Positions 1-63,032 of a stretch of 64,000 nucleotides of DNA are shown piece after piece (positions within the stretch are counted from its first letter, which is position 1; every line of letters starts with the position of its first letter). The stretch is taken from contig JAZRQE010000043.1 in NCBI GenBank assembly GCA_045649545.1, forward strand, positions 476 to 64,475, read 5' to 3'. Origin of the DNA: Acutalibacteraceae bacterium. Its GTDB lineage: Bacteria > Bacillota > Clostridia > Oscillospirales > Acutalibacteraceae. The notes under the pieces are model-generated. The model worked only from the letters and a program-made list of their open reading frames with translations, was not told the DNA's origin and did no database searches. Position numbers and translations under genes: made by a program.

Positions 1-27
1 ACCCACCGCATAACGCGGTGGGTTTTA
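1..27. terminator. GC-rich hairpin ACCCACCGC-N5-GCGGTGGGT plus T-run, just beyond the cysK stop and cut by the window edge
   Basis: Perfect 9-bp stem 1-9/15-23 and TTT 24-26 read directly. Any minus-strand U-tract would lie outside the window. Confidence 0.45.
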
Positions 28-37
28 AGATTTAGTA

Positions 38-964
38 TTAATCAAACATTCCTGTTGAGAGGTAACGTTCACCTGTATCGGGCAGGAGAGCTACGATTGT
101 TTTACCTTTGTTTTCGGGTCGGCGTGCTAACTGTAAAGCCGCAAAGCAGGTAGCACCTGAAGATATACCAACCAAAATCCCTTCGGTGTGGGCAATTTCT
201 TTTGCCATAAGCATAGCATCGTCGGATTTGACGGCAATGATTTCATCAATAATATTTTGGTCAAGATTTTCAGGCACAAAGTTTGCACCTATTCCTTGAA
301 TTTTGTGCGGACCTGAGTAGCCTTTCGATAAAAGCGGCGAGTCAAACGGTTCAACAGCCACTATTTTCACATTGGGGTTTTGCTCTTTTAAATATTTGCC
401 CGTGCCGGAAAGCGTACCGCCCGTACCCACCGATGCAACGAAAATATCAACAGTGCCGTCGGTATCGTTCCAAATTTCAGGACCGGTCGTGTTATAATGA
501 GCCTCGGGATTGGCAGGGTTATCGAACTGTGAAGGGATAAACGAGCCGGGGGTGGTTTTAGATAACTCTAAAGCCTTTTCAATAGCACCGCTCATACCCT
601 TACTGCCTTCGGTTAATACAATTTCAGCACCGAACGCCTTAAGCAGGTTTCGGCGTTCAACACTCATAGTGTCCGGCATAGTGAGTATAACTTTATATCC
701 GCGTGCCGTCCCGACCGACGCAAGACCGATACCGGTGTTACCGCTTGTGGGCTCGATAATGGTCGCACCCTTAGTGATTTTGCCGGTTTTCTCAGCAACG
801 TCAAGCATACTTAAAGCAACGCGGTCTTTAGCACTGCCGGCAGGGTTAAAACACTCCATTTTACCTAAAACCGTTGCCGAAATTTTATGTTGCTCGGTTA
901 AATTATTAAGTTTTAATAGTGGTGTGTTGCCAATTAGTTCGGCAACCGAATTATAAATTTTCAT
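38..964 (-). CDS. cysK: Cysteine synthase A (O-acetylserine sulfhydrylase)
   Basis: 308 aa. KIYNSVAELIGNTPLLKL N-terminus and the SGNTG and GTGGT loops are typical of CysK. ATG 964 is preferred over TTG 976 because GGAG lies 6 nt upstream. Confidence 0.9.
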   Translation of the reverse strand: MKIYNSVAELIGNTPLLKLNNLTEQHKISATVLGKMECFNPAGSAKDRVALSMLDVAEKTGKITKGATIIEPTSGNTGIGLASVGTARGYKVILTMPDTMSVERRNLLKAFGAEIVLTEGSKGMSGAIEKALELSKTTPGSFIPSQFDNPANPEAHYNTTGPEIWNDTDGTVDIFVASVGTGGTLSGTGKYLKEQNPNVKIVAVEPFDSPLLSKGYSGPHKIQGIGANFVPENLDQNIIDEIIAVKSDDAMLMAKEIAHTEGILVGISSGATCFAALQLARRPENKGKTIVALLPDTGERYLSTGMFD

Positions 965-1508
965 TTCGTTCTCCAATTCGTTTTGTCAAAATAGCACCGG
1001 GTAGTTTTCTTAATACCGTCACAAGCGGGAAGATAAGAGTTCCTACGAATATATTACCCACACAGTGTATTGTGTCATAAGGCAGACCCATAATAACCCA
1101 AGTGAAAAATTGGCTCCAATCGCCACCTGTAAACAATATAATATGTGCCGGAGCATATAAAAGACCAAATAGAAGTCCATGCAAACCGCAAACGGCAATA
1201 TAAACAAAGGTTGCTACAATAGGTTTCATATTGCGGGGTAATAGCATTACAACCGCCCAAAGCACCGTCCATACGTAAAGGTAAGGTAGTGTCCAAGGTG
1301 ATAAGCCTGAAAAGAACAACGTCAAAAACACATAAACATATATGGGAATCAGTGCTTTTAAACGGTATACCACCGTAAATGTGACGGTGAACATTCCTAT
1401 AAGATGTATATTCGGCAATAATTCCATTATTATGTCCGAAATATACATTAACGTACCAAACGAGGCAAACAGAACGATTTGGAAAAGCAAACGTCCTGTT
1501 TTACTCAT
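951..1508 (-). CDS. Small polytopic membrane protein, possible ECF-type S component (CbrT-like) for a corrinoid
   Basis: 185 aa, about 5-6 hydrophobic helices, no soluble domain. ATGA start/stop overlap with the upstream DUF4430 gene. The operon lies behind a cobalamin riboswitch. The family call is contextual inference. Confidence 0.5.
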   Translation of the reverse strand: MSKTGRLLFQIVLFASFGTLMYISDIIMELLPNIHLIGMFTVTFTVVYRLKALIPIYVYVFLTLFFSGLSPWTLPYLYVWTVLWAVVMLLPRNMKPIVATFVYIAVCGLHGLLFGLLYAPAHIILFTGGDWSQFFTWVIMGLPYDTIHCVGNIFVGTLIFPLVTVLRKLPGAILTKRIGERNENL

Positions 1509-2023
1509 TCCTTAGTGTATTGGAACCAATATTCAGCGTCTTTTACGATATCGGTTTTATCAACGCCGGTTGAGGCATACTTGCCGTCGATATAAAATGC
1601 CCAATAAGCCTTATCTTTGTCGTAATCGGCGGTAATGCCGGTGACGGTTTTAACATAAAGACCGTATGCACCTTCCTCACCGGAAATCATATTCAGGTCT
1701 TGCAGGGCATCACCAACGATTGTTTTGTTAGTGAAAACACGGTAAATAGTGTTAGAATCATTTGGACCGAGAACGCGGAAAATAAACGAGATGTTGCCGT
1801 TACCCTTGTTGACATCGGTGGCGGCTACGCCATAAGTATCGCCCGGAACATAAGACGAGGTTTCACTAGAACCGGTTGATGCAGTTGCCGACTGTCCGGG
1901 AACATAGTTGTCTTGGGGTGTTTCTTTTTCGCCGCAAGACGTGAGTGAAAGTCCTATTGCCGCAATAAGACAAATTGATAAAATGAGGGACATAAGTTTT
2001 TTGATAAAGTTTAAATTTTTCAT
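1505..2023 (-). CDS. Lipoprotein with transcobalamin-like C-terminal (DUF4430) domain
   Basis: Signal peptide with lipobox LTSC. The C-terminal GAYGLYV...AYWAFYIDGKYASTGVDK...DAEYWFQY resembles the DUF4430 pattern. AGGAGAAA RBS upstream. Confidence 0.7.
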   Translation of the reverse strand: MKNLNFIKKLMSLILSICLIAAIGLSLTSCGEKETPQDNYVPGQSATASTGSSETSSYVPGDTYGVAATDVNKGNGNISFIFRVLGPNDSNTIYRVFTNKTIVGDALQDLNMISGEEGAYGLYVKTVTGITADYDKDKAYWAFYIDGKYASTGVDKTDIVKDAEYWFQYTKE

Positions 2024-2094
2024 TTATCATTTCTCCTTTTTTGTTTTGAAAACTATTCTTCGGCACTCGCAAAGCTGAAATTTCAGAAGTTTTC

Positions 2095-2260
2095 TGTTTC
2101 GGATTCGGTCTTCCGACTTAAAGCAAAATTAAGTCACCTTCTCAGTGTTACCCAATGGCTTATCTCCCTTTGCGGCAGGGGATAGACTTGATAAATCAAA
2201 CTAATTACGGCGGCGTGCCCGTGCAGGAGTTACACCTGCTTCCCATTAATCCGATAACAT
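2095..2260 (-). promoter_or_regulatory. Cobalamin (B12) riboswitch
   Basis: Minus-strand RNA reads AAUGGGAAGCAGGUGUAACUCCUGCACGGGCACGCCGCCGUAA (conserved core), then GCCAUUGGG...GAAGGUGAC, then the B12-box-like AAGUCGGAAGACCGAAUCC. P1 is CGGAUU (2248-2253) pairing with AAUCCG (2100-2105). Confidence 0.8.
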
Positions 2261-2355
2261 TTTACCACTTTTTTTAATGCATTTCAATAGTAAGTTATTG
2301 TCAGCCAAAGCAAAAATTTAAGCGGAAGGGTATGTCCCTTCCGCTTAAAAACATC

Positions 2356-3267
2356 TTATTTTTTATCACCCATAGTAAGCACCAAAACTGCCTTTTGTGC
2401 GTGCAGGCGGTTTTCTGCCTCGTCGAAAATCTCGTCGGCGTGCTTTTCAAAGGTTTCTGCGGTAATTTCTTCACCTCTGTGAGCAGGTAAGCAATGCATA
2501 ACCATTGCGTCCTTATGAGCCAACGACATAAAGCCCTCGTTAACCTGATATTCTTTGAATACACGTTCACGTTCAACCTTTTCGTCTTCCTGACCCATTG
2601 ATGCCCAAACGTCAGTATAAACGGCGTCGGCGTCTTTTACGGCTGCACCGATATCCTCTGTGCAGGTGAATTTGCCGGTAGCACTTGCCCACTTCATAAT
2701 ATCGGCATCAGGCTCGTAACCCTTAGGACAGGCAATTGCCACTTCCATACCGCACTTAATACCGCCGACAATCAGCGAGTTTGCCATATTGTTTCCGTCA
2801 CCGACAAAGGTAAGTTTAAGTCCCTCTAAAGAGCCTTTATGCTCACGGATTGTCATTAAGTCGGCTAAAACTTGGCAGGGATGACAATAGTCGGTCAAAC
2901 CGTTGATTATGGGGATTGAGCCGTATTTTGCCAAATCCTCAACCTCTTGTTGAGCAAAGGTACGAATCATAATACCGTCTAAATAACGTGATAATACACG
3001 TGCGGTATCCTCGACCGGCTCACCTCTGCCGATTTGAAGGTCGCGTGAACTTAAAAACAAAGCTTGACCGCCCAAGTGGTACATACCGGCTTCAAATGAA
3101 ACACGGGTACGTGTAGAAGATTTTTGGAAAATCAAACCTAATGTTTTACCCTTTAAATAGCGGTGGTCAACGCCGTGCTTTTGGTCGTATTTTAACTGGT
3201 CGGCGAGATTTAAAATTTCTTCGATTTCAGCGGTTGATAAATCGCCTAATTTAAGTAAATGTTTCAT
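2356..3267 (-). CDS. argF: Ornithine carbamoyltransferase
   Basis: 303 aa. STRTRVSFE, HPCQ, DVWASMG and HCLPAHRGEE motifs. Confidence 0.92.
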   Translation of the reverse strand: MKHLLKLGDLSTAEIEEILNLADQLKYDQKHGVDHRYLKGKTLGLIFQKSSTRTRVSFEAGMYHLGGQALFLSSRDLQIGRGEPVEDTARVLSRYLDGIMIRTFAQQEVEDLAKYGSIPIINGLTDYCHPCQVLADLMTIREHKGSLEGLKLTFVGDGNNMANSLIVGGIKCGMEVAIACPKGYEPDADIMKWASATGKFTCTEDIGAAVKDADAVYTDVWASMGQEDEKVERERVFKEYQVNEGFMSLAHKDAMVMHCLPAHRGEEITAETFEKHADEIFDEAENRLHAQKAVLVLTMGDKK

Positions 3268-4427
3268 TCTTCAATAATCTCCTTTAAGATTTTCAGAGCT
3301 TTGTCTACCTGTTCTTTTGTTATGTTTAAGGGAGGCAACAATCTTAATTTCGTTTTTGCGGTTAAAACCAAAACACCCTTTTCCAACGCTTTATCGCTGA
3401 GCTCTTTTGCCGGTTTTTCGGTTTCGATACCGAGCATAAGTCCTAATCCTGAAACGCTTTTGACACCGTTAATTTTCAAAAGTTGGGATTTTATGTATTC
3501 TGATTTCTCTGTGACCTCGTCAAGCAGTTTCTGGTCAATTCTTTTAACAATGGACACAGCACCGGCTGATACTACGGGGTTTCCTCCGAAGGTTGAGCCG
3601 TGGTCACCGCCCTTTAATGTAAACTCGGTCTTTTCACCGAAAATACAAGCACCAATCGGCAATCCTCCGCCAAGACCTTTTGCGGTTGTGATAATGTCCG
3701 GTTTTAAATTGAAATGCTCGCAAGCGAAATATTTACCTGTTCTGCCGTTGCCGGTCTGCACTTCGTCGGCAATAATGAGAAAGCCATATTTTTGGGCTTC
3801 CGTTTTAACACAGTCGATAAATTCTTGCGATAAGGCGTTAACTCCGCCCTCACCCTGAACTAATTCAAGCATAACTGCGGCGGTATCACTGCCTACAGCC
3901 GATTTCAAAGCCTCGCAATCGTTAGCGGGGACAAACTCAAAACCGTTTGTAAAGGGGCCAAAGTCTTTATGGAAAACGTCCTGACCTGTGGCGGAAAGGG
4001 TAGTAACTGTTCTGCCGTGGAAACTGTTTATTAAGGTGATTATCTTACCCTCGGCACCGTTATGACAGTCGGAATAATATTTACGTGCGGTTTTTATTGC
4101 ACATTCGTTAGCCTCTGCACCCGAATTGCCAAAAAAGACCTTTTTCATTCCTGACTTTTCGCAAAGCAACTTTGCCAATTCAACACACGGCTTTGAATAG
4201 TAAAGGTTAGAGGTGTGTTGAATTAAATTCAACTGCTCAATTACTGCATTTTTCCATTCTGTATCGTTAATACCGAAGGTGTTTACGGCAATACCTGAGC
4301 CTAAATCAATGTATTTTTTGCCGTCAACATCTGTAATTTCGGCACCGTTACCGCTTATTAATTCAACATTAAATCTGCCGTACGTGTTAGCGACATACTG
4401 TTTATCATTTTCAATAAAATGTTCCAT
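3264..4427 (-). CDS. argD: Acetylornithine aminotransferase
   Basis: 387-aa class-III aminotransferase. 4-nt overlap with argF. Lies in the arg operon. Confidence 0.88.
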   Translation of the reverse strand: MEHFIENDKQYVANTYGRFNVELISGNGAEITDVDGKKYIDLGSGIAVNTFGINDTEWKNAVIEQLNLIQHTSNLYYSKPCVELAKLLCEKSGMKKVFFGNSGAEANECAIKTARKYYSDCHNGAEGKIITLINSFHGRTVTTLSATGQDVFHKDFGPFTNGFEFVPANDCEALKSAVGSDTAAVMLELVQGEGGVNALSQEFIDCVKTEAQKYGFLIIADEVQTGNGRTGKYFACEHFNLKPDIITTAKGLGGGLPIGACIFGEKTEFTLKGGDHGSTFGGNPVVSAGAVSIVKRIDQKLLDEVTEKSEYIKSQLLKINGVKSVSGLGLMLGIETEKPAKELSDKALEKGVLVLTAKTKLRLLPPLNITKEQVDKALKILKEIIEE

Positions 4428-4430
4428 TTT

Positions 4431-5285
4431 TTACCCCACAAACATTGTGCCGATACCTTCGTCGGTGAGAGTTTCTATTAAAATTGCGTGCGGAATACGT
4501 CCATCAATAATAAATACCTTTTGAACTCCGCGACGGATAGCCTCAATACAACATTCAACCTTGGGTATCATACCGCCTTGGATAACGCCGTTTTTAATGA
4601 GCAGGGTAGCCTCACTGACGTTAACTTTTCTAATCAGCGAATCGGGGTCGTCTTTATCTCTCATAAGACCTGAAATATCGGTCATGGAAATAAAACTTTC
4701 AGCCTTTAATTTGCCTGCAATTTCTGCCGCGGCAGTGTCGGCATTAATGTTGTAAACATTACCCTCACCATCACAACCTACGGTTGAAACAACGGGGATA
4801 TATCCCTTTTCAAGCAAATCCAAAATAGGTTGGGTGTTAATATCGGTAATTTCACCGACAAAGCCTAAATCTTCGTTCATTTTTTCGGCACGAATCATAT
4901 GTCCGTCGATACCACAAAGACCAATAGCCTTACCGCCGGTATTTTCCAAAAGGTTGACTAAATCCTTGTTGGTTTTACCTGCCAATACCATTTGTACGAT
5001 TTCAACAGTTTCTTGGTCGGTAACACGAAGTCCGTCTTTAAATACCGATTCTTTGCCGACTCTTTTCAACATTCCCGAAATTTCGGGACCGCCGCCGTGC
5101 ACCAAAACAACTTTAGCACCGACTAACGATAAAAGCACAATATCGTGCATAACTGCGGCTTTAAGTTCGCCGTTTATCATAGCGTTACCGCCGTATTTTA
5201 TAACGACGATTTTACCGGCATATTTTTGAATATAAGGTAATGCTTCGGTTAAGACCAAAGCTCTTTGAGCGTTATTAATTTCCAT
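4431..5285 (-). CDS. argB: Acetylglutamate kinase
   Basis: 284 aa amino-acid kinase fold. KYGGNAM and VHGGGP motifs. Confidence 0.92.
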   Translation of the reverse strand: MEINNAQRALVLTEALPYIQKYAGKIVVIKYGGNAMINGELKAAVMHDIVLLSLVGAKVVLVHGGGPEISGMLKRVGKESVFKDGLRVTDQETVEIVQMVLAGKTNKDLVNLLENTGGKAIGLCGIDGHMIRAEKMNEDLGFVGEITDINTQPILDLLEKGYIPVVSTVGCDGEGNVYNINADTAAAEIAGKLKAESFISMTDISGLMRDKDDPDSLIRKVNVSEATLLIKNGVIQGGMIPKVECCIEAIRRGVQKVFIIDGRIPHAILIETLTDEGIGTMFVG

Positions 5286-5305
5286 TATAATTCACCCTTT
5301 CGAAA

Positions 5306-6523
5306 TCAGGTTCTGTAGTCGCCGTTGATTTTTACGTAATCGTAGGTCAAATCGCAACCCCAAGCGGTCGCGGTAGCGTCACCGCTGTCTAACGTAACAA
5401 GAATTGTAATTTCTTCTTCCAAAAGAATTTTCTTTGCAATTTCTTCGCTGAAATCTACACCTGCACCGTTGCGACAAACTTCGATTTCGCCGGAAACCGA
5501 CTTAAACGAAACGCCGACTTTGGTAACATCTAAATCAGCACCGCTGTAGCCGATTGCACAAAGTACGCGACCCCAGTTAGCGTCAGCACCGAAGATTGCA
5601 GCTTTAAGCAGTGACGAGCAGGCGACCGACTTGGCGACTGTTCTGGCAGTCATTTTATCGGAAGCACCCGAAACGATAACCTCCATAAGTCTTGTTGCAC
5701 CCTCACCGTCACGTGCAATGCTACGGCAAAGGTAAGAGGTTACGGCAAACAGCGCTTCTTTAAATGCCTTAAATCCGTCACTGTCAACACTGTCAATAAT
5801 GGGGTTTTCAGCCAAACCGTTGGCTAAAATACAACACATATCGTTGGTTGAGGTGTCACCGTCAACGCTTACCATATTGAAGGAATCTTTAATATCCTCG
5901 CTTAACGCGGTTTGAAGAATCTCAGGTTTAATATTAACGTCACTTGTGATAAAAACAAGCATAGTTGCCATATTGGGATGAATCATACCTGAACCCTTGG
6001 CAATACCGCCGATGGTACACATTTTACCATTTACTTCGAACTTAAAGGCAATTTCCTTAACCTTGGTATCGGTGGTCATAATACCCTCTGCAGCACGGCG
6101 GCTGCCCGAAAAGTCAAGCTCTTTTATTAGCTGAGGCATACCGTTTGCGATAGGGGTAATGTCAAGCGGTTGACCGATAACGCCGGTCGAGGCAACGATA
6201 ACGTCACTTGCATTAATCTTTGCATATTGCTGAACTAAATCACACATACCCTCGGCAATTTCAATACCGTTGGCGTTGCAGGTGTTGGCGTTACCGCTGT
6301 TGCAGATAATTGCCTGTGCATAGCCGTCAGTTAAGTTTTTCTTGGTAACGGTCAAAGGTGCACCCTTGACAAGGTTGGTTGTGTAGGTTGCGGCTGCAGA
6401 AGCCTTAACCTCGCTCACAATCAGTGCTAAATCGCGTTTTGTTTTATTCTTTCTAATTCCGCAATGGATACCCGATGCTTTAAATCCTTTTGCGGCACAA
6501 ATGCCGCCCTCTGTTTTTATCAT
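5306..6523 (-). CDS. argJ: Bifunctional ornithine acetyltransferase / N-acetylglutamate synthase
   Basis: 405 aa. HPNMATML autoprocessing site. ATG 6523 has AAGGTGA 5 nt upstream and is preferred over GTG 6532. Confidence 0.9.
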   Translation of the reverse strand: MIKTEGGICAAKGFKASGIHCGIRKNKTKRDLALIVSEVKASAAATYTTNLVKGAPLTVTKKNLTDGYAQAIICNSGNANTCNANGIEIAEGMCDLVQQYAKINASDVIVASTGVIGQPLDITPIANGMPQLIKELDFSGSRRAAEGIMTTDTKVKEIAFKFEVNGKMCTIGGIAKGSGMIHPNMATMLVFITSDVNIKPEILQTALSEDIKDSFNMVSVDGDTSTNDMCCILANGLAENPIIDSVDSDGFKAFKEALFAVTSYLCRSIARDGEGATRLMEVIVSGASDKMTARTVAKSVACSSLLKAAIFGADANWGRVLCAIGYSGADLDVTKVGVSFKSVSGEIEVCRNGAGVDFSEEIAKKILLEEEITILVTLDSGDATATAWGCDLTYDYVKINGDYRT

Positions 6524-6535
6524 TGTAATCACCTT

Positions 6536-7468
6536 TTATAAGTCTAAACCTTCGGTTTCGTCGAAACCAAGCATAATATTCATACATTGTACTGCGGCAC
6601 CTGAGGCACCTTTGCCCAAGTTGTCAAATCGAGCCGAGACAGTGAAACGTTCCTCATTACCGCAAACAAAAATTTGCATTTTGTCTTTACCTGACAGGTT
6701 GTTCGAGCCCAACATAGAGCCGGTGCTTTCACCGTTTATATCCGAAACATCAATAAACTTTGCGTCAGCGTACTTTTTTAAGTAGACCTGTTTTACTGCC
6801 TCAATACCGCCTTTGACCTGACTTTTGAAGAATGGTACGGTTACTAACATTCCGCTGTAATAGTCGTCAACAATGGGGGAGAATACGGGTTGGTTTTCAA
6901 GTCCCGATATTGCTGCCATTTCGGGCAGATGCTTATGTGTTTGTCCCAAAGCATAAATTCTGGCACTGTTCATTTCGTCTGACTTCTCATTTTCGTATTG
7001 AGCAATCATTTTTTTGCCGCCGCCGGAATAACCTGTCAATGAAAAGCAGGTGATAAGAGCATCACTCTCAATCACGCCAGCCTCAACCAACGGACTGATT
7101 AAAGCGTTAAAGCCGCTTGCGTGACAGCCGGGAACAGCAACACGCTTTGCGTTGGGAAGTTTTTCTCTGAACTCTTTTTTTAGTTCGGGAAAGCCGTAAA
7201 CCCAATCGGGATTAGTGCGGTGAGCAGTCGAAGTGTCAATTATTTTAACATTCTCATTTTCAACCAAGCTTACCGCCTCGATTGCAGCGGCATCAGGCAG
7301 ACATAAAAAAGCTACGTCGCAAGCATTTAAAAATTTGCGTCGTTCTTCCAAGTCCTTACGCTTGTCCTCGTCGATAAGCATAAGTTCTATATCTTTTCTC
7401 TTACTTAAACGCTCGATTATCCGAAGACCGGTTGTGCCTTCGCGTCCGTCAATGAAAACTTTGAACAT
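6536..7468 (-). CDS. argC: N-acetyl-gamma-glutamyl-phosphate reductase (short form)
   Basis: 310 aa. Catalytic PGCHASG. GGAGG RBS. First gene of argCJBDF. Confidence 0.9.
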   Translation of the reverse strand: MFKVFIDGREGTTGLRIIERLSKRKDIELMLIDEDKRKDLEERRKFLNACDVAFLCLPDAAAIEAVSLVENENVKIIDTSTAHRTNPDWVYGFPELKKEFREKLPNAKRVAVPGCHASGFNALISPLVEAGVIESDALITCFSLTGYSGGGKKMIAQYENEKSDEMNSARIYALGQTHKHLPEMAAISGLENQPVFSPIVDDYYSGMLVTVPFFKSQVKGGIEAVKQVYLKKYADAKFIDVSDINGESTGSMLGSNNLSGKDKMQIFVCGNEERFTVSARFDNLGKGASGAAVQCMNIMLGFDETEGLDL

Positions 7469-7518
7469 TTTTGACCTCCGTCAGTTGTAAAAATATGCTC
7501 CCATGCTATGTTCTTATA

Positions 7519-7546
7519 ATTATACAACAAAAATGAATAAAATCAA
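7519..7546 (-). promoter_or_regulatory. Probable sigma-A promoter of argCJBDF
   Basis: On the minus strand: TTGATT (7541-7546), 16-nt spacer, TATAAT (7519-7524), about 50 nt upstream of the argC ATG. Confidence 0.5.
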
Positions 7547-7777
7547 GTGTTTTTTATAAATTTATCTAATGTATGCAAAATCGCCGTTTTTTACTTAAAA
7601 TACTGTAAAAAAGCAACAAAACATATAAATTTTGGATGTATTAAAGATTTGCGGTTAAAATCATTGATTTTAAGAAAATGCATAAATACTCTAAAATTTT
7701 GCATATTAATACATTTCCATCGCAATTTGAGGGTCATTCTCGCGGTTTAATATGTAAAGATAGTGGTAATATTTATA

Positions 7778-7982
7778 ATAATGATTGTAGTTAGTCAAAA
7801 CGCTTTGAAAACGTTTTGACGAGCCACTTAGAAGTGGCACTAACAAAACCAAATTGCATAATTTGGTTTTGTACGACAATCATTGTAATAGATATGGACA
7901 AATTTTCTTTGAAAATTTGCTACAAAATCAAAGATTTTGTGTCGAAACAGACATGTTTCGACTAACCATAACTATTATAATA
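7778..7982 (+). repeat. Six-hairpin structured intergenic element, copy 1
   Basis: Hairpins at 7794-7820, 7823-7838, 7843-7872, 7899-7919, 7922-7940 and 7941-7962. Flanked by GTTAG/CTAAC and AATGATTG/CAATCATT pairings. No ORF. Homologous to 26143-26351. Confidence 0.75.
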
Positions 7983-8076
7983 GTGTAAATAATGTGTAAA
8001 TTTAAAATAGTTAGGTTTACTTTTTTCCAAAATAGTGGTAAAATTTAGTAAGAATATTTTTTTACGGAGATATATT

Positions 8077-8907
8077 ATGCAACCTACTTTTAGTGAAATT
8101 AAAAAAGCGGCACGAGGTGCGTTAAAACATCGTTGGCCTGAAGCTATTGTGATTTCGGTTGTACTTATTGCTACATTGTTGCTTAATACTTTTATGCAAT
8201 ATATGTTGATGAGTATCTTTAAAGTTAAAGAGGTTTGGACACCGTTCACTCCTACTGATTTACCGCTTTATAGCCAATTAGCAAGTGTTGGAATAACACT
8301 TTTTTCTGCAGTTTTCAGTTTTCTTATAATGTTTCCTTTGTTTTTCGGTGTAATGCGTTGGTTTTGGTTTGTTACGGGTGGAAGTTCAGTCAGTGTTGGA
8401 GACATTTTTTATTACTTTTCCTCGCCGAAAACCTTTTTTAAAACATTAGGTCTTTCAATAAGACTGTATATAAGGTTGGTTATAGGTGCTATTGTTTGTT
8501 TTTTGCCTTATATTACAGTAGGTATTTTAACATCACCTCATTTGTACGATAGTTTGGGAGTTTCGATGCCGATTGTTATGAACGGCTTGTTACCGTTGGT
8601 ATCGTTTTTCAAATTGTTCGGATTTTTAGCACTTTTAATGTGGATTAGTGTTTATATTTTGTGTTACACTGTAATTTTTTCCGAACCCGAACTCTCATCA
8701 GGCAAAACTATCCGCCGAACTGTCAAGGTGACAAAAGGTTTCAGGTTTAATACGGTAGGATTTTTCTTCAGCTTTTTCGGTTGGCTTTTGCTGTCACTTT
8801 TGGCGGTGCCGCTTATTTTTACAGTGCCTTATTTGTTGGCATCGTTTGCGGTTTACGGTCGTGAGGTATACCGTGCCTCAAAACATACTGAACAGCAGTC
8901 TCTATAA
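8077..8907 (+). CDS. DUF975-like polytopic membrane protein
   Basis: 276 aa from ATG 8077 (GGAGA at 8066-8070). About 6 TM helices. The FSEIKKAARGALKHRW N-terminus is reminiscent of DUF975. Confidence 0.6.
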   Translation: MQPTFSEIKKAARGALKHRWPEAIVISVVLIATLLLNTFMQYMLMSIFKVKEVWTPFTPTDLPLYSQLASVGITLFSAVFSFLIMFPLFFGVMRWFWFVTGGSSVSVGDIFYYFSSPKTFFKTLGLSIRLYIRLVIGAIVCFLPYITVGILTSPHLYDSLGVSMPIVMNGLLPLVSFFKLFGFLALLMWISVYILCYTVIFSEPELSSGKTIRRTVKVTKGFRFNTVGFFFSFFGWLLLSLLAVPLIFTVPYLLASFAVYGREVYRASKHTEQQSL

Positions 8908-9458: not shown

Positions 9459-10172
9459 GTGTTTTATATTGATTGGTCTTATATAATTTTGGTAATGCCG
9501 TTTGTTATTCTTTCAATGCTTGCCAGTGCGAAGGTTAATTCTTCTTTTAAAAAGTATTCAGAAGTTTATTCGCGTCGCGGACTTACCGCTGCCGAGGCGG
9601 CAAGAAGAGTTTTGCAGGATAACGGCGTTTTAGGTGTAAATATTGAGCGTGTGAAAGGTCATTTGACCGACCATTTTGACCCCAAAGCTAATACAATCAG
9701 GCTTTCGGAAAACGTTTATGACAGTACCTCGGTTGCCTCAATCGGTGTTGCCTGTCACGAGGCAGGTCACGCTGTTCAGCACGCGGTAGGGTATTTGCCG
9801 GTTAAAATTCGCACTGCCATTGTTCCGATAACCAATATCGGCTCAAAGTTGTCGATTCCGCTAGTGCTGTTGGGAATAATTCTTTCGTCATTCGGTGCTC
9901 AATACAGCATAATCGCATATATAGGTGTTGCACTTTTTGCGTTGTGTGTTGTATTCCAGTTGGTCACCTTGCCGACCGAATTTAACGCAAGCCGTAGGGC
10001 TTTAAGGGCGATAACTGATGGCGGTATTTTGTATGAAGACGAGGCAATAGGTGCTAAAAAAGTGTTAACTGCCGCCGCTATGACCTATGTTGCCGCATTA
10101 GCGGTTACCGTAATGCAGTTATTAAGACTGTTTTTACTTGTTGCAGGCTCGCAACAGCGTCGCAGAAGATAG
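9459..10172 (+). CDS. Putative neutral zinc metallopeptidase (YugP-like membrane protein)
   Basis: 237 aa. GTG start with GGAGG upstream. HEAGHAVQH zinc motif. TM helices at both ends. Confidence 0.75.
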   Translation: MFYIDWSYIILVMPFVILSMLASAKVNSSFKKYSEVYSRRGLTAAEAARRVLQDNGVLGVNIERVKGHLTDHFDPKANTIRLSENVYDSTSVASIGVACHEAGHAVQHAVGYLPVKIRTAIVPITNIGSKLSIPLVLLGIILSSFGAQYSIIAYIGVALFALCVVFQLVTLPTEFNASRRALRAITDGGILYEDEAIGAKKVLTAAAMTYVAALAVTVMQLLRLFLLVAGSQQRRRR

Positions 10173-26118: not shown

Positions 26119-26147
26119 TTGAAATTCCTGTGCGTTTGTATTATAAT
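26119..26147 (+). promoter_or_regulatory. Near-consensus sigma-A promoter at the 5' edge of repeat copy 2
   Basis: TTGAAA (26119-26124), 17-nt spacer, TATAAT (26142-26147). Predicted start is near 26154. Confidence 0.6.
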
Positions 26148-26351
26148 GATTGCAGTTAGTCGAAACACTCTAAAAGCGTTTCGACAAGCCACTTGACAAG
26201 TGGCTTTTGCAAAATTAAATTATAATATTTAATTTTGCACGACAATCATTTCAATGGAATAGGACAAATTTTTGACAAAAATTTGTCGCAAAATCAAAGA
26301 TTTTGTGGCGAAACAGGATTGTTTCGCCTAACCTATTTCATTATTATAATA
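26143..26351 (+). repeat. Six-hairpin structured intergenic element, copy 2
   Basis: Hairpins at 26159-26185, 26188-26204, 26209-26238, 26263-26287, 26288-26306 and 26307-26328. Same order and linkers as copy 1. Confidence 0.75.
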
Positions 26352-55163: not shown

Positions 55164-56111
55164 ATGGCTGAAGTAAAAAATATTGCTACCCGTGATGCTT
55201 ATGGTGCCGCTTTGGTAGAGCTTGCCGAAAAAAGAGATGACTTTATCGTTTTAGATGCTGACCTTGCCGCCGCAACCAAGACCGGTACTTTTAAAAAGGC
55301 ACATCCGGAGCGTTTTTACAACTGCGGTATTGCCGAGCAGAATATGATGAGTGTTGCTGCAGGCTTTGCATCGACCGGTAAAATGGTTTTTGCAAGCTCG
55401 TTTGCAATGTTTGCCGCAGGTCGTGCTTTCGAGCAGGTTAGAAACTCAATCGGTTATCCTAATTTAAATGTTAAAATTGGTGCTTCTCACGCCGGTATTT
55501 CGGTTGGTGAGGATGGTGCTACACATCAGTGCTGTGAAGATATTGCTTTGATGCGTACAATTCCCGGTATGACCATCATCAATCCTGCTGATGCTGTAGA
55601 GGCTCGTCAGGCAGTGCTTGCTGTTGCTGAGATGGATGGTCCCGCTTATATGCGTTTTGGTCGTCTTGCCGTTCCGGTTGTGTTTGATGACAGCTATAAG
55701 TTTGAAATCGGCAAGGGTGTTGAATTAAAGAACGGTACTGATGTTACCGTTATTGCCACCGGTCTTTTAGTTAAAGAGGCATTAGAGGCTTACGATTTGT
55801 TGGCAGCAGAGGGTATTTCGGCAAGAATTATCAATATGGCTACCATTAAGCCGATTGACCGCGAGATTATCGAAAAAGCCGCCCGTGAAACCGGTGCGAT
55901 TGTTACTGCCGAGGAGCATTCAGTTATCGGTGGACTTGGTTCTGCAGTTGCAGAGGTTGTTACCGAAACCTGCCCCGTTCCGGTTGTTAAGGTCGGTGTT
56001 GAGGATACATTCGGTATGTCAGGTCCTGCAAATGAGTTGCTTGATATCTTTGGTCTTCGTGCTAAAGACATTGTTGAGAAAGCAAAGAAGGCAATCGCCG
56101 CTAAAAAGTAA
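55164..56111 (+). CDS. Transketolase, C-terminal (pyrimidine-binding) subunit
   Basis: 315 aa from ATG 55164 (AGGAGG RBS). Follows the N-terminal subunit. Confidence 0.9.
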   Translation: MAEVKNIATRDAYGAALVELAEKRDDFIVLDADLAAATKTGTFKKAHPERFYNCGIAEQNMMSVAAGFASTGKMVFASSFAMFAAGRAFEQVRNSIGYPNLNVKIGASHAGISVGEDGATHQCCEDIALMRTIPGMTIINPADAVEARQAVLAVAEMDGPAYMRFGRLAVPVVFDDSYKFEIGKGVELKNGTDVTVIATGLLVKEALEAYDLLAAEGISARIINMATIKPIDREIIEKAARETGAIVTAEEHSVIGGLGSAVAEVVTETCPVPVVKVGVEDTFGMSGPANELLDIFGLRAKDIVEKAKKAIAAKK

Positions 56112-56124
56112 TTATATAAAAAAC

Positions 56125-56163
56125 AAAGGGAGACACTTCGTAAAGAAGCTGTCTCCCTTTTTA
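56125..56163. terminator. Bidirectional intrinsic terminator
   Basis: GGGAGACACTTC-N5-GAAGCTGTCTCCC flanked by A- and T-runs. Confidence 0.8.
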
Positions 56164-56188
56164 ATATTTAATTATGAAATATTTATAA

Positions 56189-56590
56189 CTATCTTTCCAT
56201 TTCTTCGGCAAGGGCTTTAAATTCTGCTGCACCGCCGGTGATATGCGTCACATAAGTAACCACAAAATTCGATTTTTCTATCATCAATTTATTTCTTTCA
56301 GCAATTCGTACTCTGTACGGCTTTACATTTAATTCATCAAAATAAATACTGTCCGTATAATCGTTATCGTCCATTTTTTGTGGGATATATGCGAGTACAA
56401 CATAGTAATTTATATTGTATGTTGTTTTAAATTCTTTAAGTAATTCTCGTACCATTCGGTCAAATGCACCGTTGTTCCCGACATAAAACATATTTACGTT
56501 TTTATTTTCAATTAAATCAATCAAAGTTGCCCTCAAAGCCGTTTTTATTGTTTCGGGTGCATTCCTATGACCGAAGAAAGTACAAACCAT
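56189..56590 (-). CDS. SLOG-fold DUF1273 (YpsA-like) protein
   Basis: 133 aa from ATG 56590. The TFFGHRN motif near the N-terminus and the GGAAEF region are reminiscent of DUF1273. Confidence 0.5.
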   Translation of the reverse strand: MVCTFFGHRNAPETIKTALRATLIDLIENKNVNMFYVGNNGAFDRMVRELLKEFKTTYNINYYVVLAYIPQKMDDNDYTDSIYFDELNVKPYRVRIAERNKLMIEKSNFVVTYVTHITGGAAEFKALAEEMER

Positions 56591-56682
56591 AACTATCTCC
56601 CGATATGCCCAATATTCGAGCATTTTATATGACCATTATATCGAGCATAATAAAAATATGCAAGATATTTTGGAGGTATATT

Positions 56683-56889
56683 ATGATAACTTATACTCCG
56701 TTGTGGGAAACATTAAAGAAAAAGGGAATGTCCACTTATACTTTAAGAGTTAAACTTAATATAAGCGGAAGTACCGTTCAGCGTTTGCGTAAAAATATGT
56801 CGGTTTCAACAAACACTTTAGATGACCTTTGTGAGTTGTTAGATTGTTCTATATCAGATATTGTTGAACATATACCAAACCATAAGTAA
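56683..56889 (+). CDS. Small XRE-type helix-turn-helix protein
   Basis: 68 aa. GGAGG RBS at 56672-56676. The GMSTYTLRVKLNISGSTVQRLRKN segment fits an HTH. Confidence 0.6.
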   Translation: MITYTPLWETLKKKGMSTYTLRVKLNISGSTVQRLRKNMSVSTNTLDDLCELLDCSISDIVEHIPNHK

Positions 56890-56905
56890 AAGTATTTATA
56901 TATGA

Positions 56906-56943
56906 TAAAAAGACAACCCGCAGTTAGCGGGTTGTCTTTTTTG
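56906..56943. terminator. Bidirectional intrinsic terminator
   Basis: AGACAACCCGC-AGTTA-GCGGGTTGTCT flanked by A4 and T6. Confidence 0.85.
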
Positions 56944-56956
56944 TGTAAAGGTATTT

Positions 56957-58507
56957 TTACTTTTGTTCTTCGTGGTATTCTTTTTCGGTATTGACATTCC
57001 AAATGGCAGTTTTGTCAGAAATTCCGTTAACAATACAATTTACCGCCTCAAAGGCTGTTGCCATTGAATGGTCCATATTGTTGTAGCGGTGCTGACCGTT
57101 ACGGCCGATACAGTAAAGGTTTTGATAGGTGTTCAAATGCCCGATAATCTTATCCATTTGACTGTAGGTGTCAAAATAAGCGGGGTAGGCTTTCTTTATC
57201 AATTCGCGGTGACTGTCAAGCACATCCGCCTCGTCAATAACACCGATTGAATTGAGCTCTTTTACCGCAAGACTTACCGCGTCACTGTCGGTCATATTCC
57301 AAAGCTCGTCACCCTCGCGGCAGAAGTATTCAAGCCCCACCCAAACGGTGTTTTCAGGGTCGGCGACCAAATAGGGTGACCAGTTGTTGAATACCTGAAT
57401 TCTACCTAATTTCACACTTGTATCCTGTACGTAAATCCAACAGTCCGGCACAATGTTGCCAAAGGTTTTGTAATCGGTTTTATTTTTAAGGTTCATTTTT
57501 TTGAGCAACAAACCGACCGTCATAAAATCGCGGAAAGGCAAGCCAAAAGCCGCTGATTTGATGTCTTCAGGTACAGTGTCACCCAAACCGCTGACTAACT
57601 CGTTGAGGGGCATTGTGGAAATGACGATGTCTGACTCTAAAGTTGCGGTTTTGCCGTCGGCATCAGTGAAATTCACAGCAGTGATTATACCATTTTGAAC
57701 ATTAAAATCACAAACTTTACAGTTAGGTTTAAATTTTACACCGTTTTGTATGGCTTTTTCGAGTGCCAACTCCCACAACTGTCCGGGACCGAATTTTGGG
57801 TAGCGGAAATTCTCAATCAGCGAGGTTTCGGTTGCCTCTTGTTTTTTACCGAAAGTTTTAGAAAGAATATCCTTAATAACGGCGGTGATTGAAAGCCCTT
57901 TTACACGCTGAGCACCCCAGTCTGCCGAAATTTCACTCGGGTGACGTCCCCAGAGTTTTTCGGTGTAACCTTCAAAAAACATCGAGTACAAAACCTTGCC
58001 GAAACGGTTTATGTAAAAGTTTTCGAGCGAGGTTTCGGGGCGTTTGTGAAGTTTAGCACCAATGTAGGAAAATCCTGCTTTAACAGTAGTTACAAAACCC
58101 ATATTTTTGATTGTATCCCATTTTAATGTTACGGGATAATCGAAAAAGTGATTTTTATAATAAATTCTCGAAATGCGGTCGCGGTTGAGCATAACTACAT
58201 CGGTCAGTTCGGGGTCGGGACCGTTCATCTTAAACTCTTTTTGGCGGTCGAACGCCAAATCATCTTTAGCGGGCGAGCCTTGTAAAGGCAACAGCTCGTC
58301 CCACCAAGCAGTGACGCGGCGGTCTTTAGAGAAAAAACGGTGACCGCCGATATCCATTCTGTTACCGTTATACTGTACGGTTTGCGAAATGCCGCCAATA
58401 CGGTCAGTAGCCTCTAAAACAGTTATTTCATAAGTGTTTTGTTTAGAAAGTTCAACTGCGGCGGTAATTCCGGCAGGGCCGGCACCGATTATAATTATTT
58501 TCTTCAC
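56957..58507 (-). CDS. FAD/NAD(P)-binding oxidoreductase (amine-oxidase / UDP-galactopyranose-mutase-like)
   Basis: 516 aa. N-terminal [14 protein letters not shown] dinucleotide fold. Confidence 0.6.
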
Positions 58508-58914
58508 GAGTCGTCACGCTTTCTGTATAAAATGATTTTCTTTGAGCCGAAATTCCAGCCGAAAACGAGCAAAGTTGTGATGATTTTTGCGGTCATATAA
58601 TGTACATTAAGCAGTCCGTCATACAAAAGCATAAATAACTCGGTCAAAACAAGACCGATTACGCCGGTAGTGAAGTAAACCGAAAATTTGGTTGAGTGGT
58701 TTTGGTCTTTGGCGATGCCGGTAAATACAAAATGAATTGACAAAATGTAATTTACGAACAAACCGCAAAGGAAAGCCAGAGCGACAGAAATATATTCCGG
58801 AATTTCGATAACGCTGTAAAAAAGCCAAAGTGCCACCCAGTCAACAACGCTGGCAATTCCACCTACGAAAAGATAGCGGAAAAACTGTATAAATGTGTTA
58901 TGAGTTTTAGCCAT
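58504..58914 (-). CDS. GtrA-family membrane protein
   Basis: 136 aa from ATG 58914, 4 [19 protein letters not shown]-terminus. 4-nt overlap with the oxidoreductase. The start is uncertain because the ORF extends to 59058. Confidence 0.55.
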
Positions 58915-59066
58915 AAACAGTGCTTTTATTTTGCGGTGACGAATAAGCCTTAACAGTTCTTTCAAAGTGAATTTCCTTTCAAATAAAAAGTATATTATTA
59001 GTATACCATATTTGTCTGTAATATGGTAGAAAAATTTTAATGTTAAAAATTGTTTCAATCAACAAA

Positions 59067-59103
59067 GCAGAAAGCCGAGGATAAATAACCCTCGGCTTTC
59101 TGC
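59067..59103 (-). terminator. Intrinsic terminator
   Basis: 14-bp perfect stem GCAGAAAGCCGAGG / CCTCGGCTTTCTGC followed by TTTGTTG on the minus strand. Confidence 0.8.
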
Positions 59104-59152
59104 TTGGAAAATTAAAAAGAAAGGATGATGAAAATTGATAGAAAAACGACAC

Positions 59153-59350
59153 TTATGCACAGGTGCGGTCATCCCTCTGGCAACGCGATTCGTGGCGATA
59201 CATGTTACGCTTTTTAGCAGAGGATTTAGTGTGACGTTTAACAAAATCGATAACACGGTCTTCAAATTTAATTAATTTCTTTTCATTAAAAAGACCCCAA
59301 ATGATAAAACCTGCAACGCTGAACTCAAGAACGGTTTGTAGTATAAACAT
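59153..59350 (-). CDS. 65-aa membrane micro-protein behind a LexA box
   Basis: AAAGGAGA RBS 6 nt before the ATG. Hydrophobic N-terminal ~20 aa and a basic C-terminal tail ending CQRDDRTCA. Confidence 0.55.
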   Translation of the reverse strand: MFILQTVLEFSVAGFIIWGLFNEKKLIKFEDRVIDFVKRHTKSSAKKRNMYRHESRCQRDDRTCA

Positions 59351-59365
59351 AATTTTTCTCCTTTC

Positions 59366-59379
59366 CGAACATTTGTTCG
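59366..59379. promoter_or_regulatory. LexA (Cheo/SOS) box CGAACATTTGTTCG
   Basis: Perfect match to the Firmicutes consensus CGAAC-N4-GTTCG. It lies 8 nt downstream of the -10 element. Confidence 0.7.
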
Positions 59380-59387
59380 GTATCTAT

Positions 59388-59416
59388 ATTTTAGCACCTT
59401 TCATGCCGTTTGTCAA
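59388..59416 (-). promoter_or_regulatory. Near-consensus sigma-A promoter for the micro-protein gene
   Basis: On the minus strand: TTGACA (59411-59416), 17-nt spacer, TGcTAAAAT with the hexamer at 59388-59393. Confidence 0.65.
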
Positions 59417-59595
59417 GGGTTTTCTTCACCCTACGTGTATATAATACCGCACATAAAGTACCATAAAAGGCACTTTGCTTGAAAAGTTTGAAAAATTGTT
59501 TAAAATTTATTTGATTTTGCGTTTTTATCCTTGCGGTTAAAAGCATATAGGACAGACAGTGATTCATACCTTTTTATTGAATGGGGGATTCGAGA

Positions 59596-60138
59596 ATGAA
59601 ATTTTTAATTTTAACAAAAAAGCACCTGGTGACGGCGGGGTGTTTATTATTGGCGGTGATTATCGGCACTGCGATTTCGGTTAATGCTTTTGCAAAGTCG
59701 GATAGGCTGTTGCCGATTTACTGCGTTAAGACTGAGGAGAAAAAAATAGCACTCACGTTTGATGCGGCTTGGGGTGCGGATGATACCGATACATTGATTA
59801 GTATTTTGAAACAATATAATGCACCGGCAACCTTTTTCGTGGTAGGTGAGTGGGTTGATAAGTACCCAGATGAGGTCAAAAGGTTGAGTGAGGCGGGCAA
59901 TGATGTTATGAATCACTCGGCAACTCACCCGTATATGACCTCGTTAAGTGAAACTCAAATGAAAGAGCAGTTGACCTCCTGTAATGCAAAGATTGAGGCG
60001 GTAACCGGCAAAAAACCGACGCTTTTCCGTTGCCCTTACGGTGACTATGATAATAAGGTGGTTTCAACGGTAGAAAGCATGGGAATGAAAACACTGCAAT
60101 GGGACGTTGAAACACTTGCAACAAAAGTAATAATGTGA
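59596..60138 (+). pseudogene. 5' portion of a NodB-type polysaccharide deacetylase gene (PdaA/PdaB-like), interrupted
   Basis: Signal/TM, then NodB motifs TFDAAWG, HSATH and RCPYG. The sequence diverges inside motif 4 (QWDVETL then ATKVIM-stop instead of D-W). The final LxH motif is absent. Confidence 0.7.
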
Positions 60139-60247
60139 TATAATATGCAAGGAAAGGATATCTTTTGTGGTGCTTCAAGCAGTGAAAAAGATAGGATTTT
60201 CAAAGAAATACTTGATATTATATTTTCAAAAAAAGGGGAAGTTGAAG

Positions 60248-61726: not shown

Positions 61727-61727
61727 C

Positions 61728-61771
61728 AAAAAAGATATGAGAGATTTTAGTTTTCTCTCATATCTTTTTTT
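61728..61771. repeat. 44-nt palindromic terminator-like hairpin, copy 1
   Basis: AAAAAAGATATGAGAGA-N9-TCTCTCATATCTTTTTT. Near-identical to 62987-63029. Confidence 0.8.
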
Positions 61772-61914
61772 GCTTTCTCATCGTTATATATCTGTTCTGC
61801 TTGTTCGTAGGTGCATTGAGTTTCTTTTCGTATTTCTGCATTACGGAGTGCCTTTTTCCATTTCTCAACATTACACCTTTTGCACACGTCTTCATAGTTA
61901 GAATCTACATACAT
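61747..61914 (-). CDS. Possible 55-aa protein downstream of mob
   Basis: ATG 61914 lies 5 nt after the mob stop, with AAGGTGA upstream. MYVDSNYEDVCKRCNVEKWKK... The 3' end runs into the hairpin. Too short for the ORF track. Confidence 0.3.
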   Translation of the reverse strand: MYVDSNYEDVCKRCNVEKWKKALRNAEIRKETQCTYEQAEQIYNDEKAKKDMREN

Positions 61915-61918
61915 AAAA

Positions 61919-62608: not shown

Positions 62609-62786
62609 CACAAATCCCCCTTTGCTCTTAATATGCGAGAGCAAAGAAACGGCAACACACACGAAAGGAAAGGTGTCGCCGTTCAACCTTACTGCAAAGC
62701 ACTTGGAAAACGGTGCTTTTTCGTGCGGTCATATCTCTGCTCTACAAAATCAGTATGGAAAAACAGATTTTATTTCGCAGAAATAT

Positions 62787-62821
62787 GACTTACTACGACT
62801 TGCATGCAAGTCAGTAAGGTC
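62787..62821. promoter_or_regulatory. Candidate oriT nested inverted repeat
   Basis: Perfect palindrome GACTTGCATGCAAGTC (62797-62812) nested in GACTTACT/AGTAAGGTC arms, about 180 nt upstream of mob. Confidence 0.35.
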
Positions 62822-62889
62822 TGCCGACAGCATTTGCAAAAAATATCATTCATATTTATTGCAAAGAAAACGAAAGGAGCGAACACAGT

Positions 62890-63000
62890 ATGAATGAAAC
62901 CCTACAAGATTTAGAACAAAAGCGAGAGGTGGTTGAAAAGGATATAGACTTCCTTTTTGAAACCTTGCAAAAGGAAATAAAGGCACAAAAAAAGATATGA
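62890..63000 (+). CDS. Possible 36-aa coiled-coil peptide
   Basis: AGGAG 8 nt before the ATG. MNETLQDLEQKREVVEKDIDFLFETLQKEIKAQKKI. The stop lies inside hairpin copy 2. Confidence 0.3.
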   Translation: MNETLQDLEQKREVVEKDIDFLFETLQKEIKAQKKI

Positions 63001-63029
63001 GAGATTTCGTTTTCTCTCATATCTTTTTT
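62987..63029. repeat. Palindromic terminator-like hairpin, copy 2
   Basis: AAAAAAAGATATGAGAGA-N8-TCTCTCATATCTTTTTT. Confidence 0.8.
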
Positions 63030-63032
63030 GTT

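Follow-up and report, generated by a model that had tools for sequence, protein, structure and literature searches.

A probable MITE-like mobile repeat with a conserved double three-hairpin fold in Acutalibacteraceae and related gut Clostridia

We have analyzed a 64,000-nucleotide stretch of an Acutalibacteraceae bacterium genome (GenBank assembly GCA_045649545.1, contig JAZRQE010000043.1, positions 476 to 64,475 of the forward strand; referred to here, at its full length, as the window), which contains two copies of a folded, non-coding element of ~200 bp. [quoted passage not shown] It is small and non-coding, has terminal inverted repeats, occurs as dispersed copies and is polymorphic for insertion. 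A first-pass annotation of the window had described two six-hairpin segments with compensatory base changes, and attributed them to selection on RNA or single-stranded DNA structure, rather than to a MITE or a protein operator array. The observation is real and well above chance, and our results also support the dismissal of an operator array. However, the contrast with a MITE does not hold, as the segments belong to a dispersed multi-copy repeat with terminal inverted repeats and unrelated flanks that is absent from the orthologous sites of relatives. The selection for structure acts on a mobile repeat. The element is, thus, a new structured MITE-like family. Elements of this kind were already known, and it does not represent a novel class of regulatory RNA.

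The two segments (window positions 7777–7979 and 26142–26345) are collinear homologues with a mean column identity of 83% in a pairwise alignment, and the similarity begins and ends abruptly. They lie where they had first been placed, except that the left border is a few bases further out (7777/7780 and 26142/26145). Copy 1 has an additional AAT at its left end (TATAAT-AAT-GATTG), compared to the family consensus TATAATGATTG, which moves the apparent border by 3 nt and is probably a 3-nt slippage. The predicted folds of both copies contain the six hairpins already recognized (H1–H6), and the individual stem pairs named for them are correct, for example A7797-T7817 in copy 1 versus G26162-C26182 in copy 2. 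The folds also contain two long-range helices. P1 pairs the 5′ end AATGATTG with CAATCATT in the middle of the element and closes H1–H3; P2 pairs AATGGnnnnGG with CCnnnnnCATT at the 3′ end and closes H4–H6. The parts of the two copies are:

7780–7976, plus strand: copy 1, from AATGATTG to CTATT, with the extra AAT before it at 7777–7779; nhmmer match 7778–7978
7778–7779 (left) and 7977–7978 (right): AT flanks of copy 1, from the sequence; positions -2/-1 are AT in 30/30 copies
7780–7791, plus strand: 5′ strand of P1 of copy 1 (left terminal repeat), paired with 7873–7884 and enclosing H1–H3
7794–7872, plus strand: domain 1 of copy 1, with H1 at 7794–7820, H2 at 7821–7840 and H3 at 7843–7872
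7887–7897, plus strand: 5′ strand of P2 of copy 1, paired with 7966–7976 (right terminal repeat) and enclosing H4–H6
7898–7962, plus strand: domain 2 of copy 1, with H4 at 7898–7920, H5 at 7922–7940 and H6 at 7941–7962
26145–26342, plus strand: copy 2, from AATGATTG to TTTCATT; nhmmer match 26143–26344
26143–26144 (left) and 26343–26344 (right): AT flanks of copy 2; the empty site in the relative L140 reads GTTTGTATT-AT-TATATTAACG
26145–26156, plus strand: 5′ strand of P1 of copy 2, paired with 26239–26250
26159–26238, plus strand: domain 1 of copy 2, with H1 at 26159–26185, H2 at 26186–26206 and H3 at 26209–26238
26253–26263, plus strand: 5′ strand of P2 of copy 2, paired with 26332–26342
26264–26328, plus strand: domain 2 of copy 2, with H4 at 26264–26286, H5 at 26288–26306 and H6 at 26307–26328

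The minimum free energy (MFE) is -79.1 kcal/mol for copy 1 and -82.2 kcal/mol for copy 2, with z ~ -10 relative to dinucleotide shuffles.

The case for mobility comes from orthologous loci in close relatives, which were found through the two downstream window genes (glgP and a DUF975 gene), and whose contigs were read and searched for the element with nhmmer. Eight such loci, four for each window site, lack the element (GlgP 83–95% and DUF975 68–90% identical). At the glgP site, loci L140–L143 (GlgP 95, 88, 86 and 83% identical, with L140 at 95%) keep the Rce1-like/glgP gene order, with an intergenic region ~200 bp shorter and no nhmmer match. L140 is a base-precise empty site, 200 bp shorter than the window, in which TTGAAAATTTGTCATGTTTGTATTAT continues directly into TATATTAACGTGATAG, also given as GTTTGTATTAT joined to TATATTAACG. 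The filled site in the window reads TTGAAATTCCTGTGCGTTTGTATTAT followed by AATGATTGC at the left junction, and CCTATTTCATTAT followed by TATAATAACGTGATAA at the right junction. At the DUF975 site, L144–L147 keep argC and DUF975, all without the element between them, and the right junction aligns at ATAATAGTGTAAAT. L144 shares a metagenome-assembled genome (MAG) with copies L075 and L083, and L147 shares a contig with L140. These two independent filled/empty contrasts, together with the dispersed copies, indicate that the element is an insertion, and is mobile or recently mobile. When the proteins of these two downstream window genes were looked up in a contig index by exact match, neither was on record. 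Among the first 70 loci, no orthologues of the flanking genes of the window were present and, therefore, the positions of the element are not shared. In the glgP leader, L141 (~4690–4750) and L143 (~9880–9950) have other inserts of ~55–70 nt with GC-rich hairpins, at or just downstream of the glgP -10 box. They end in ...ACATTAT and ...AATCATTAT before TATAAT/AAT, and could either have been inserted independently into a shared hot spot or be what is left of related elements.

The search for further members that had been proposed at the outset yielded about 35 more copies with unrelated flanks; their sources are gut and rumen metagenomes and no fewer than five Acutalibacteraceae/Clostridia MAGs. 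A scan of the genome collection with the central linker found seven of these, including one that runs off its contig, in MAGs of Acutalibacteraceae and in a Clostridia MAG from sheep rectum, the other matches being chance or coding. In metagenomes, a second, independent pattern that combined the left end with H2 added about 30, many from assembly JAEIGA01, one from human gut and others from animal samples. nhmmer identified about 38 copies and fragments over all of the related DNA collected. There are two copies in the 64-kb window, at least two in MAG JAZRSW01, at least two in JAZONB01, and copies on more than 20 contigs of assembly JAEIGA01. In every copy, the similarity starts at (T)ATAATG and stops at CATTAT(A), and L113 and L123 differ by 1 nt, yet sit in different flanks. 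The unit is 200–213 bp long, with indels of 1–10 nt in the loops; it contains no conserved ORF, in line with the first-pass annotation. Element searches against phage and plasmid collections by BLAST gave no match, and scans of viral contigs with H5, the central linker and the left end gave chance matches or none. Literature searches found no described repeat of this kind in Ruminococcus or Acutalibacteraceae.

Several variants are degenerate, as expected of a decaying repeat. L116 (9750–9871) is a deletion variant in which H1-H2 are joined straight to the 3′ arm of H5 and to H6; the GCAAAATCAAA words common to H3 and H5 seem to have recombined. L134 is truncated; no insertion sequence (IS) was found inside it, and its neighbors are small non-transposase ORFs. 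In L106, the first ~143 nt are fused to an inverted self-copy (119–261, minus strand, and 1–142, plus strand) in a long palindrome at the contig end, with a complete copy 3.3 kb away (3537–3736).

The terminal motifs of the unit are AATGATTGTAG on the left and CTA..TCATT on the right. The terminal inverted repeats, AATGA...TCATT, are perfect at the very ends and imperfect over ~27 bp, with the right end matching the left end, taken as its reverse complement, at 19/27 positions (alignment A3, described below). In 30 independent copies, the 5 nt to the left of AATGATTG are (A/G)TTAT, with AT in all 30, and the 3 nt following ...CATT-AT are AAT in 22, 22 and 17 copies, position by position. The core AATGA...TCATT, with AT on each side, is thus embedded in a palindromic AT-rich target, ATT[AT]AAT, and this reading reproduces the length of the L140 empty site exactly. 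The AT pair around copy 2 is read as a 2-bp duplication or crossover core, judging from the aligned junctions. A TA duplication of the IS630 type was rejected, as it would make the glgP empty site 2 bp too short, and so was a general 5-bp duplication, since few copies have the same pentamer on the left and on the right. As the ends of the element mimic the two target halves, each junction regains a TATAAT and, therefore, -10 boxes are natural targets.

The two halves of the element are related to each other in inverted orientation (z=4.9), whereas a direct (tandem) duplication is rejected (z=0.2). The element is, therefore, an old inverted dimer of two ~100-bp units. An end-to-end junction of two elements, TCATT-AT-AATGA, is a perfect 12-bp palindrome, and a look-alike, TCATT-NN-AATGG, is found at the center of the element. 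Such a junction is seen at L101 (~92–105) and L105 (~114–127, minus strand), where a right-end fragment of 10–12 nt (CCTATTTCATT and CATAACCATT) abuts the left end of a full copy. The left flank of L134 (5503–5510, CCTATTT) bears a weaker resemblance to the right end. These fragments could be remnants of tandem copies or insertions beside an existing end.

Conservation of the fold was assessed on 31 distinct full-length copies (alignment A3) with an explicit structure comprising P0, P1, H1–H3, P2 and H4–H6 (82 pairs). RNAalifold recovers P1, P2 and the hairpins from these copies, and 95.6% of the cells are paired. Double changes occur in 25 of the 82 pairs, compared to 10.3±1.7 in shuffles (0/500 reach 25) and 3–11 when the partners are slid by 1–3 columns. 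The original claim that the fold is kept by compensatory change is thus supported on this larger set. Ten helices are conserved, with P1 and P2 each closing a four-way junction of three hairpins (a double cloverleaf). P2 is the best-supported helix, with 8/11 pairs covarying between strands ~90 nt apart, and its center occurs in at least five versions (AAAA/TTTT, AATA/TATT, ATAT/ATAA, AATG/CATA and TTAA/TTAA). P2 pairs 124/215 and 126/213 are A-U in 20 copies, and U-A in 10 and 8, respectively; H6 pair 177/206 is G-C in 21 copies and U-A in 9. A helix of GTTAG with CTAAC, which had been proposed to close the whole array, fares no better than chance (85% of cells paired, equaled by 162/500 shuffles) and clashes with H1, H6, P1 and P2. 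Closure is provided by P1 and P2 instead.

Between the two window copies, 11 pairs differ on both partners with pairing kept, compared to the six or more originally counted; seven are in hairpins and four in a long-range helix that had not been described. A further eight pairs have a one-sided change. Several of these compensatory differences recur in other genomes and, therefore, mark variants of the element, not events in this genome. It might be argued that they are a mutational by-product, with intrastrand template switching at quasi-palindromes copying one arm to the other in a neutral repeat. Six short-loop palindromes in AT-rich DNA are a classical substrate for such switching, and the strand symmetry described below is what a DNA-level process predicts. 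We nevertheless consider this quite unlikely, since the helix that covaries most joins strands ~90 nt apart (as does P1), several pairs show a G-C/G·U/A-U series, and unpaired columns differ between the window copies at 18/60 positions (30%), compared to ~6% uncompensated changes at paired positions.

The strandedness of the fold was approached through its wobble pairs. G·U and A·C cells occur in a ratio of 66:41, in 22 and 21 pairs, respectively. H1 has A·C in nine copies of one subfamily, where the other strand would have G·U, and the basal pair of H5 is G·U in 19, A-U in 6 and G-C in 3 copies. RNAs of the plus and minus strands are predicted to be equally stable (MFE comparison 13:18, p=0.26). 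In view of this lack of strand asymmetry, RNA and single-stranded DNA are not distinguishable. Thus, of the earlier proposal that RNA or single-stranded DNA structure is selected, the structural constraint stands and nothing favors RNA over single-stranded DNA. As far as the alignment can tell, a single-stranded fold appears to be under constraint, in a nucleic acid that may be either RNA or DNA.

A genuine cis-acting or stand-alone structured RNA (a leader, riboswitch-like element or sRNA), whose gene is present several times and regulates the gene downstream, would account for the strong covariation, including that of a long-range helix, and for the G·U-rich series at the base of H5. Approximately 16 copies, or about two-thirds, are in sense orientation upstream of a gene, some directly before a ribosome-binding site (RBS), and copy 2 lies behind a good promoter. 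The distribution of the copies makes this explanation very improbable. The element is not retained at the same loci in close relatives, and the downstream genes form no coherent set (glgP, DUF975, fhs, an mreB-like gene and others). Copies are found between divergent, tandem (sense and antisense) and convergent genes and in both orientations with respect to their neighbors; ~8 face the 3′ end of a gene on the opposite strand, and many left ends lie 10–40 nt from the start of a divergent gene. There is no strand-specific RNA signature. A scan for terminator-like sites found none in the region covered around copy 1, and none that overlaps copy 2. Consistent with the first-pass annotation, which could match no RNA family, Rfam 15 gave no match to the element in the window or in 14 related loci, and relaxed scans of both copies gave only sub-threshold noise. 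The single Rfam match in the window lies elsewhere: a cobalamin riboswitch (RF00174; 2107–2244, minus strand; 40.5 bits, gathering score 31.5), upstream of minus-strand ORFs 1505–2023 and 951–1508, the first of which has a DUF4430 protein as its orthologue in L145/L147.

Relations to promoters differ between copies. Relatives of the glgP locus without the element have a conserved promoter, TTGAAA/TTGCAA-17-TATTAT/TATAAT, at the same place, and the insertion in the window split its -10 hexamer. The promoters at copy 2 are:

26119–26147, plus strand: glgP promoter TTGAAA-17-TATAAT (11/12 matches in a promoter scan), with its -10 box made of TAT from the flank and AAT from the element
26317–26345, plus strand: candidate outward hybrid promoter at the right junction, predicted from TTGTTT in the 3′ arm of H6, a 17-bp spacer and TATTAT

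TTGTTT lies exactly 17 bp before the right-junction hexamer in 20/30 copies; this hexamer is TATAAT in 10 copies and matches it at 5 or more of 6 positions in 23/30. Thus, an outward hybrid promoter at the right end is possible, as far as these motifs can be trusted. The left-end TATAAT was rejected as a general inward promoter, since -35 matches in the flank are at chance level (mostly 2–3 of 6) and good ones occur only in copy 2 of the window, L084, L101, L126/L136 and L132. An outward promoter at the left end was also rejected (poor -35, GCGTTT). The DUF975 gene has its own conserved promoter, TTTACT-17-TAAAAT, which has a TG extension and is situated downstream of copy 1. This copy is, therefore, not in the leader of that gene and need not be in its mRNA, which is a further difficulty for a regulatory leader. 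In contrast, L113 lies 7 nt from the stop codon of comFC and is followed by the RBS of an mreB-like gene, and must be read through if the latter is expressed from the operon. At L138, a TPP riboswitch (1560–1671, plus strand) and the left end of a copy are ~120 nt apart. The riboswitch is directed away from the copy, so that its promoter must lie at or next to the left junction of the element.

Several points weigh against the conclusion that the element is a MITE-like repeat. A search of 668 kb of related loci revealed neither a transposase nor an autonomous partner sharing the ends of the element, and no solo ends or transposases beside the copies; no partner was found in the phage, plasmid and viral collections either. 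Both flanks can be aligned in one filled/empty pair only (copy 2), and this lies within a (TAT)n tract. The AT flanks, as read from the junctions, would fit three events equally well: duplication of the 2-bp AT, a conservative crossover at a 2-bp core, or insertion 3′ of ATTAT with nothing duplicated. The covariation counts, including the 25 of 82 pairs, overstate the number of independent events because the copies share ancestry and some of the changes are markers of variants found in more than one genome. Double-stranded cut-and-paste transposition gives no evident reason for six conserved internal hairpins. Finally, the transcription of any copy is suggested by gene layout only.

Alternatively, the element could be a derivative of a single-stranded-DNA transposon, either a palindrome-associated element of the IS200/IS605 type ("PATE") or one mobilized by another HUH enzyme, inserting 3′ of (A/T)TTAT without duplication. 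H1 and H6 would then be the subterminal hairpins seen by the enzyme, with selection for the fold acting on the single-stranded DNA intermediate. The two hairpins do share a core, CGAAAC...GTTTCG, and the left flank ends in (A/G)TTAT while the element ends in CATTAT, as expected if the target equals the right cleavage site. The L140 empty site is compatible with insertion without duplication, and there is no strand asymmetry of the RNA type. The plus strand of the element is on the locally G-rich strand in 15 loci versus 5 (absolute skew >0.03), which fits a replication-strand bias or selection for sense orientation, being confounded with gene orientation. However, IS200/IS605 elements show neither inverted-repeat ends nor a palindromic target logo, no tnpA or tnpB was seen near the copies, and the conservation extends to all ten helices, although such an element would require no more than its terminal hairpins. 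We therefore regard this origin as unlikely and continue to favor the MITE-like repeat.

Two further regions of the window are described here for completeness. A 519-residue large serine recombinase with Resolvase and Recombinase domains (60167–61726, plus strand) follows a short polysaccharide-deacetylase ORF (59581–60138). Over 56000–64000, the G+C content falls to 0.35–0.39 and several ORFs have no Pfam match; this region is probably an integrated element, and no link between it and the repeat was found. At ~7500–8100, the GC skew changes from negative (1–8000) to positive (8001 onward), exactly where argC and DUF975 diverge and copy 1 lies between them. The flip may reflect a switch in gene strand only, or a replication-related switch. 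In the relative L143, dnaA-dnaN is ~7 kb from glgP.

In architecture, the closest analogues would be bcr1 of the Bacillus cereus group and, for the creation of promoters at the ends, the Correia elements (CREE/NEMIS) of Neisseria. Correia elements duplicate TA and are processed by RNase III. They form one long hairpin from 26-bp terminal inverted repeats and carry an IHF site, unlike the element described here, in which internal hairpins are present, each terminal repeat pairs with an internal complement, and promoter activity is predicted only. The resemblance lies in a MITE with terminal inverted repeats, a short AT target and ends that create promoter boxes (PMC3184786). Correia elements are often located 5′ of genes, are co-transcribed and fold in RNA (PMC3184786). 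bcr1 is ~155 bp long, differs in position between strains, has TTTAT direct repeats, is transcribed as a part of UTRs and operon spacers, and has a cruciform-like fold that compensatory changes maintain (PMC3184786, PMC6542083, PMC3446304). Like bcr1 (a member of group A, bcr1–bcr3), our element is a Firmicute interspersed repeat of 150–200 bp with non-conserved positions and a short AT-rich repeat at its ends; this likeness is functional and architectural, drawn from literature descriptions and not from sequence homology (PMC3184786). The host clade is different, ten helices in two three-hairpin domains replace the two stem-loops of bcr1, and the target is palindromic and -10-like, with TATAAT rebuilt at the junctions.

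Other families share individual traits. BOX, RUP and SPRITE of Streptococcus pneumoniae are also short, multi-copy, hairpin-forming intergenic repeats of Firmicutes, and are transcribed with their neighbors (PMC3184786). BOX is modular (boxA-boxB(n)-boxC), whereas no modular copy-number variation is seen here, and RUP is a 107-bp IS630-type MITE; the ends and target of these repeats differ from those of our element. PATEs and the REP/BIME-RAYT systems are similar in hairpin recognition, single-strand biology, a short left-flank target and strand bias. However, they have no terminal inverted repeats, REPs are GC-rich palindromes of 20–40 nt, and no Y1 transposase was found here; our copies are AT-rich composites of 200 bp that do not cluster, unlike REP/BIME. 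The IS30 family is characterized by 2-bp duplications, palindromic hot-spot targets, attraction to its own ends and a reactive junction of abutted ends 2 bp apart. That junction resembles TCATT-NN-AATGG at the center of the element and TCATT-AT-AATGA at L101 and L105. The similarity is purely formal, since no IS30-like gene or matching inverted repeats were identified.

These observations can be combined into the following scheme for the MITE-like repeat. The element enters ATT[AT]AAT sites, and where it hits a -10 box, TATAAT is rebuilt on both sides. The old -35 with the rebuilt -10 would then read into the element, and the right end would provide TTGTTT 17 bp upstream of the second rebuilt -10. 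When single-stranded, the terminal repeat of each unit pairs with its internal complement (P1 and P2). The relevant form could be RNA, in transcripts that read through the element in either orientation, or single-stranded DNA, as an intermediate of transposition or replication, the level of selection being a matter of inference. We prefer the possibility that a self-contained fold makes insertions in promoters, leaders and operon spacers tolerable, and perhaps stabilizing; alternatively, the fold may act in mobility itself. In either case, compensatory substitutions between subfamilies have kept the fold intact in those lineages that spread. We would go further only tentatively, as it seems unlikely that the double three-hairpin fold is the functional core, whether as a new single-stranded (DNA or RNA) substrate of a recombinase that targets -10-like palindromes, or as a mobile "plug-in leader" co-opted by the host. 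If the latter were true, such a leader would bring with it an outward -35, a -10 rebuilt on insertion and an RNA structure that insulates itself or stabilizes, and promoters would be rewired by transposition.

The element has some unusual features for its kind, namely ten conserved helices, a dimeric double-cloverleaf architecture and a TATAAT-rebuilding target. Its structure could easily be misfiled as a new riboswitch or sRNA, and in a mobile repeat, covariation alone is no proof of a host-encoded RNA. The family is unannotated, as neither Rfam nor the phage and plasmid collections that were searched contained a match, and is carried by abundant gut and rumen Clostridia, often at gene starts. 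In the genomes of these bacteria, it will therefore affect the annotation of promoters and UTRs, the typing of strains and the places where assemblies break. A palindromic target that contains a -10 box, with TATAAT rebuilt on both sides, offers a testable route by which a MITE may insert without killing a promoter, and the glgP promoter of this genome is a natural experiment for which a relative with the empty site is at hand. The maintenance of ten helices in a mobile element reopens the question raised by bcr1, that is, the level at which such a fold is selected.

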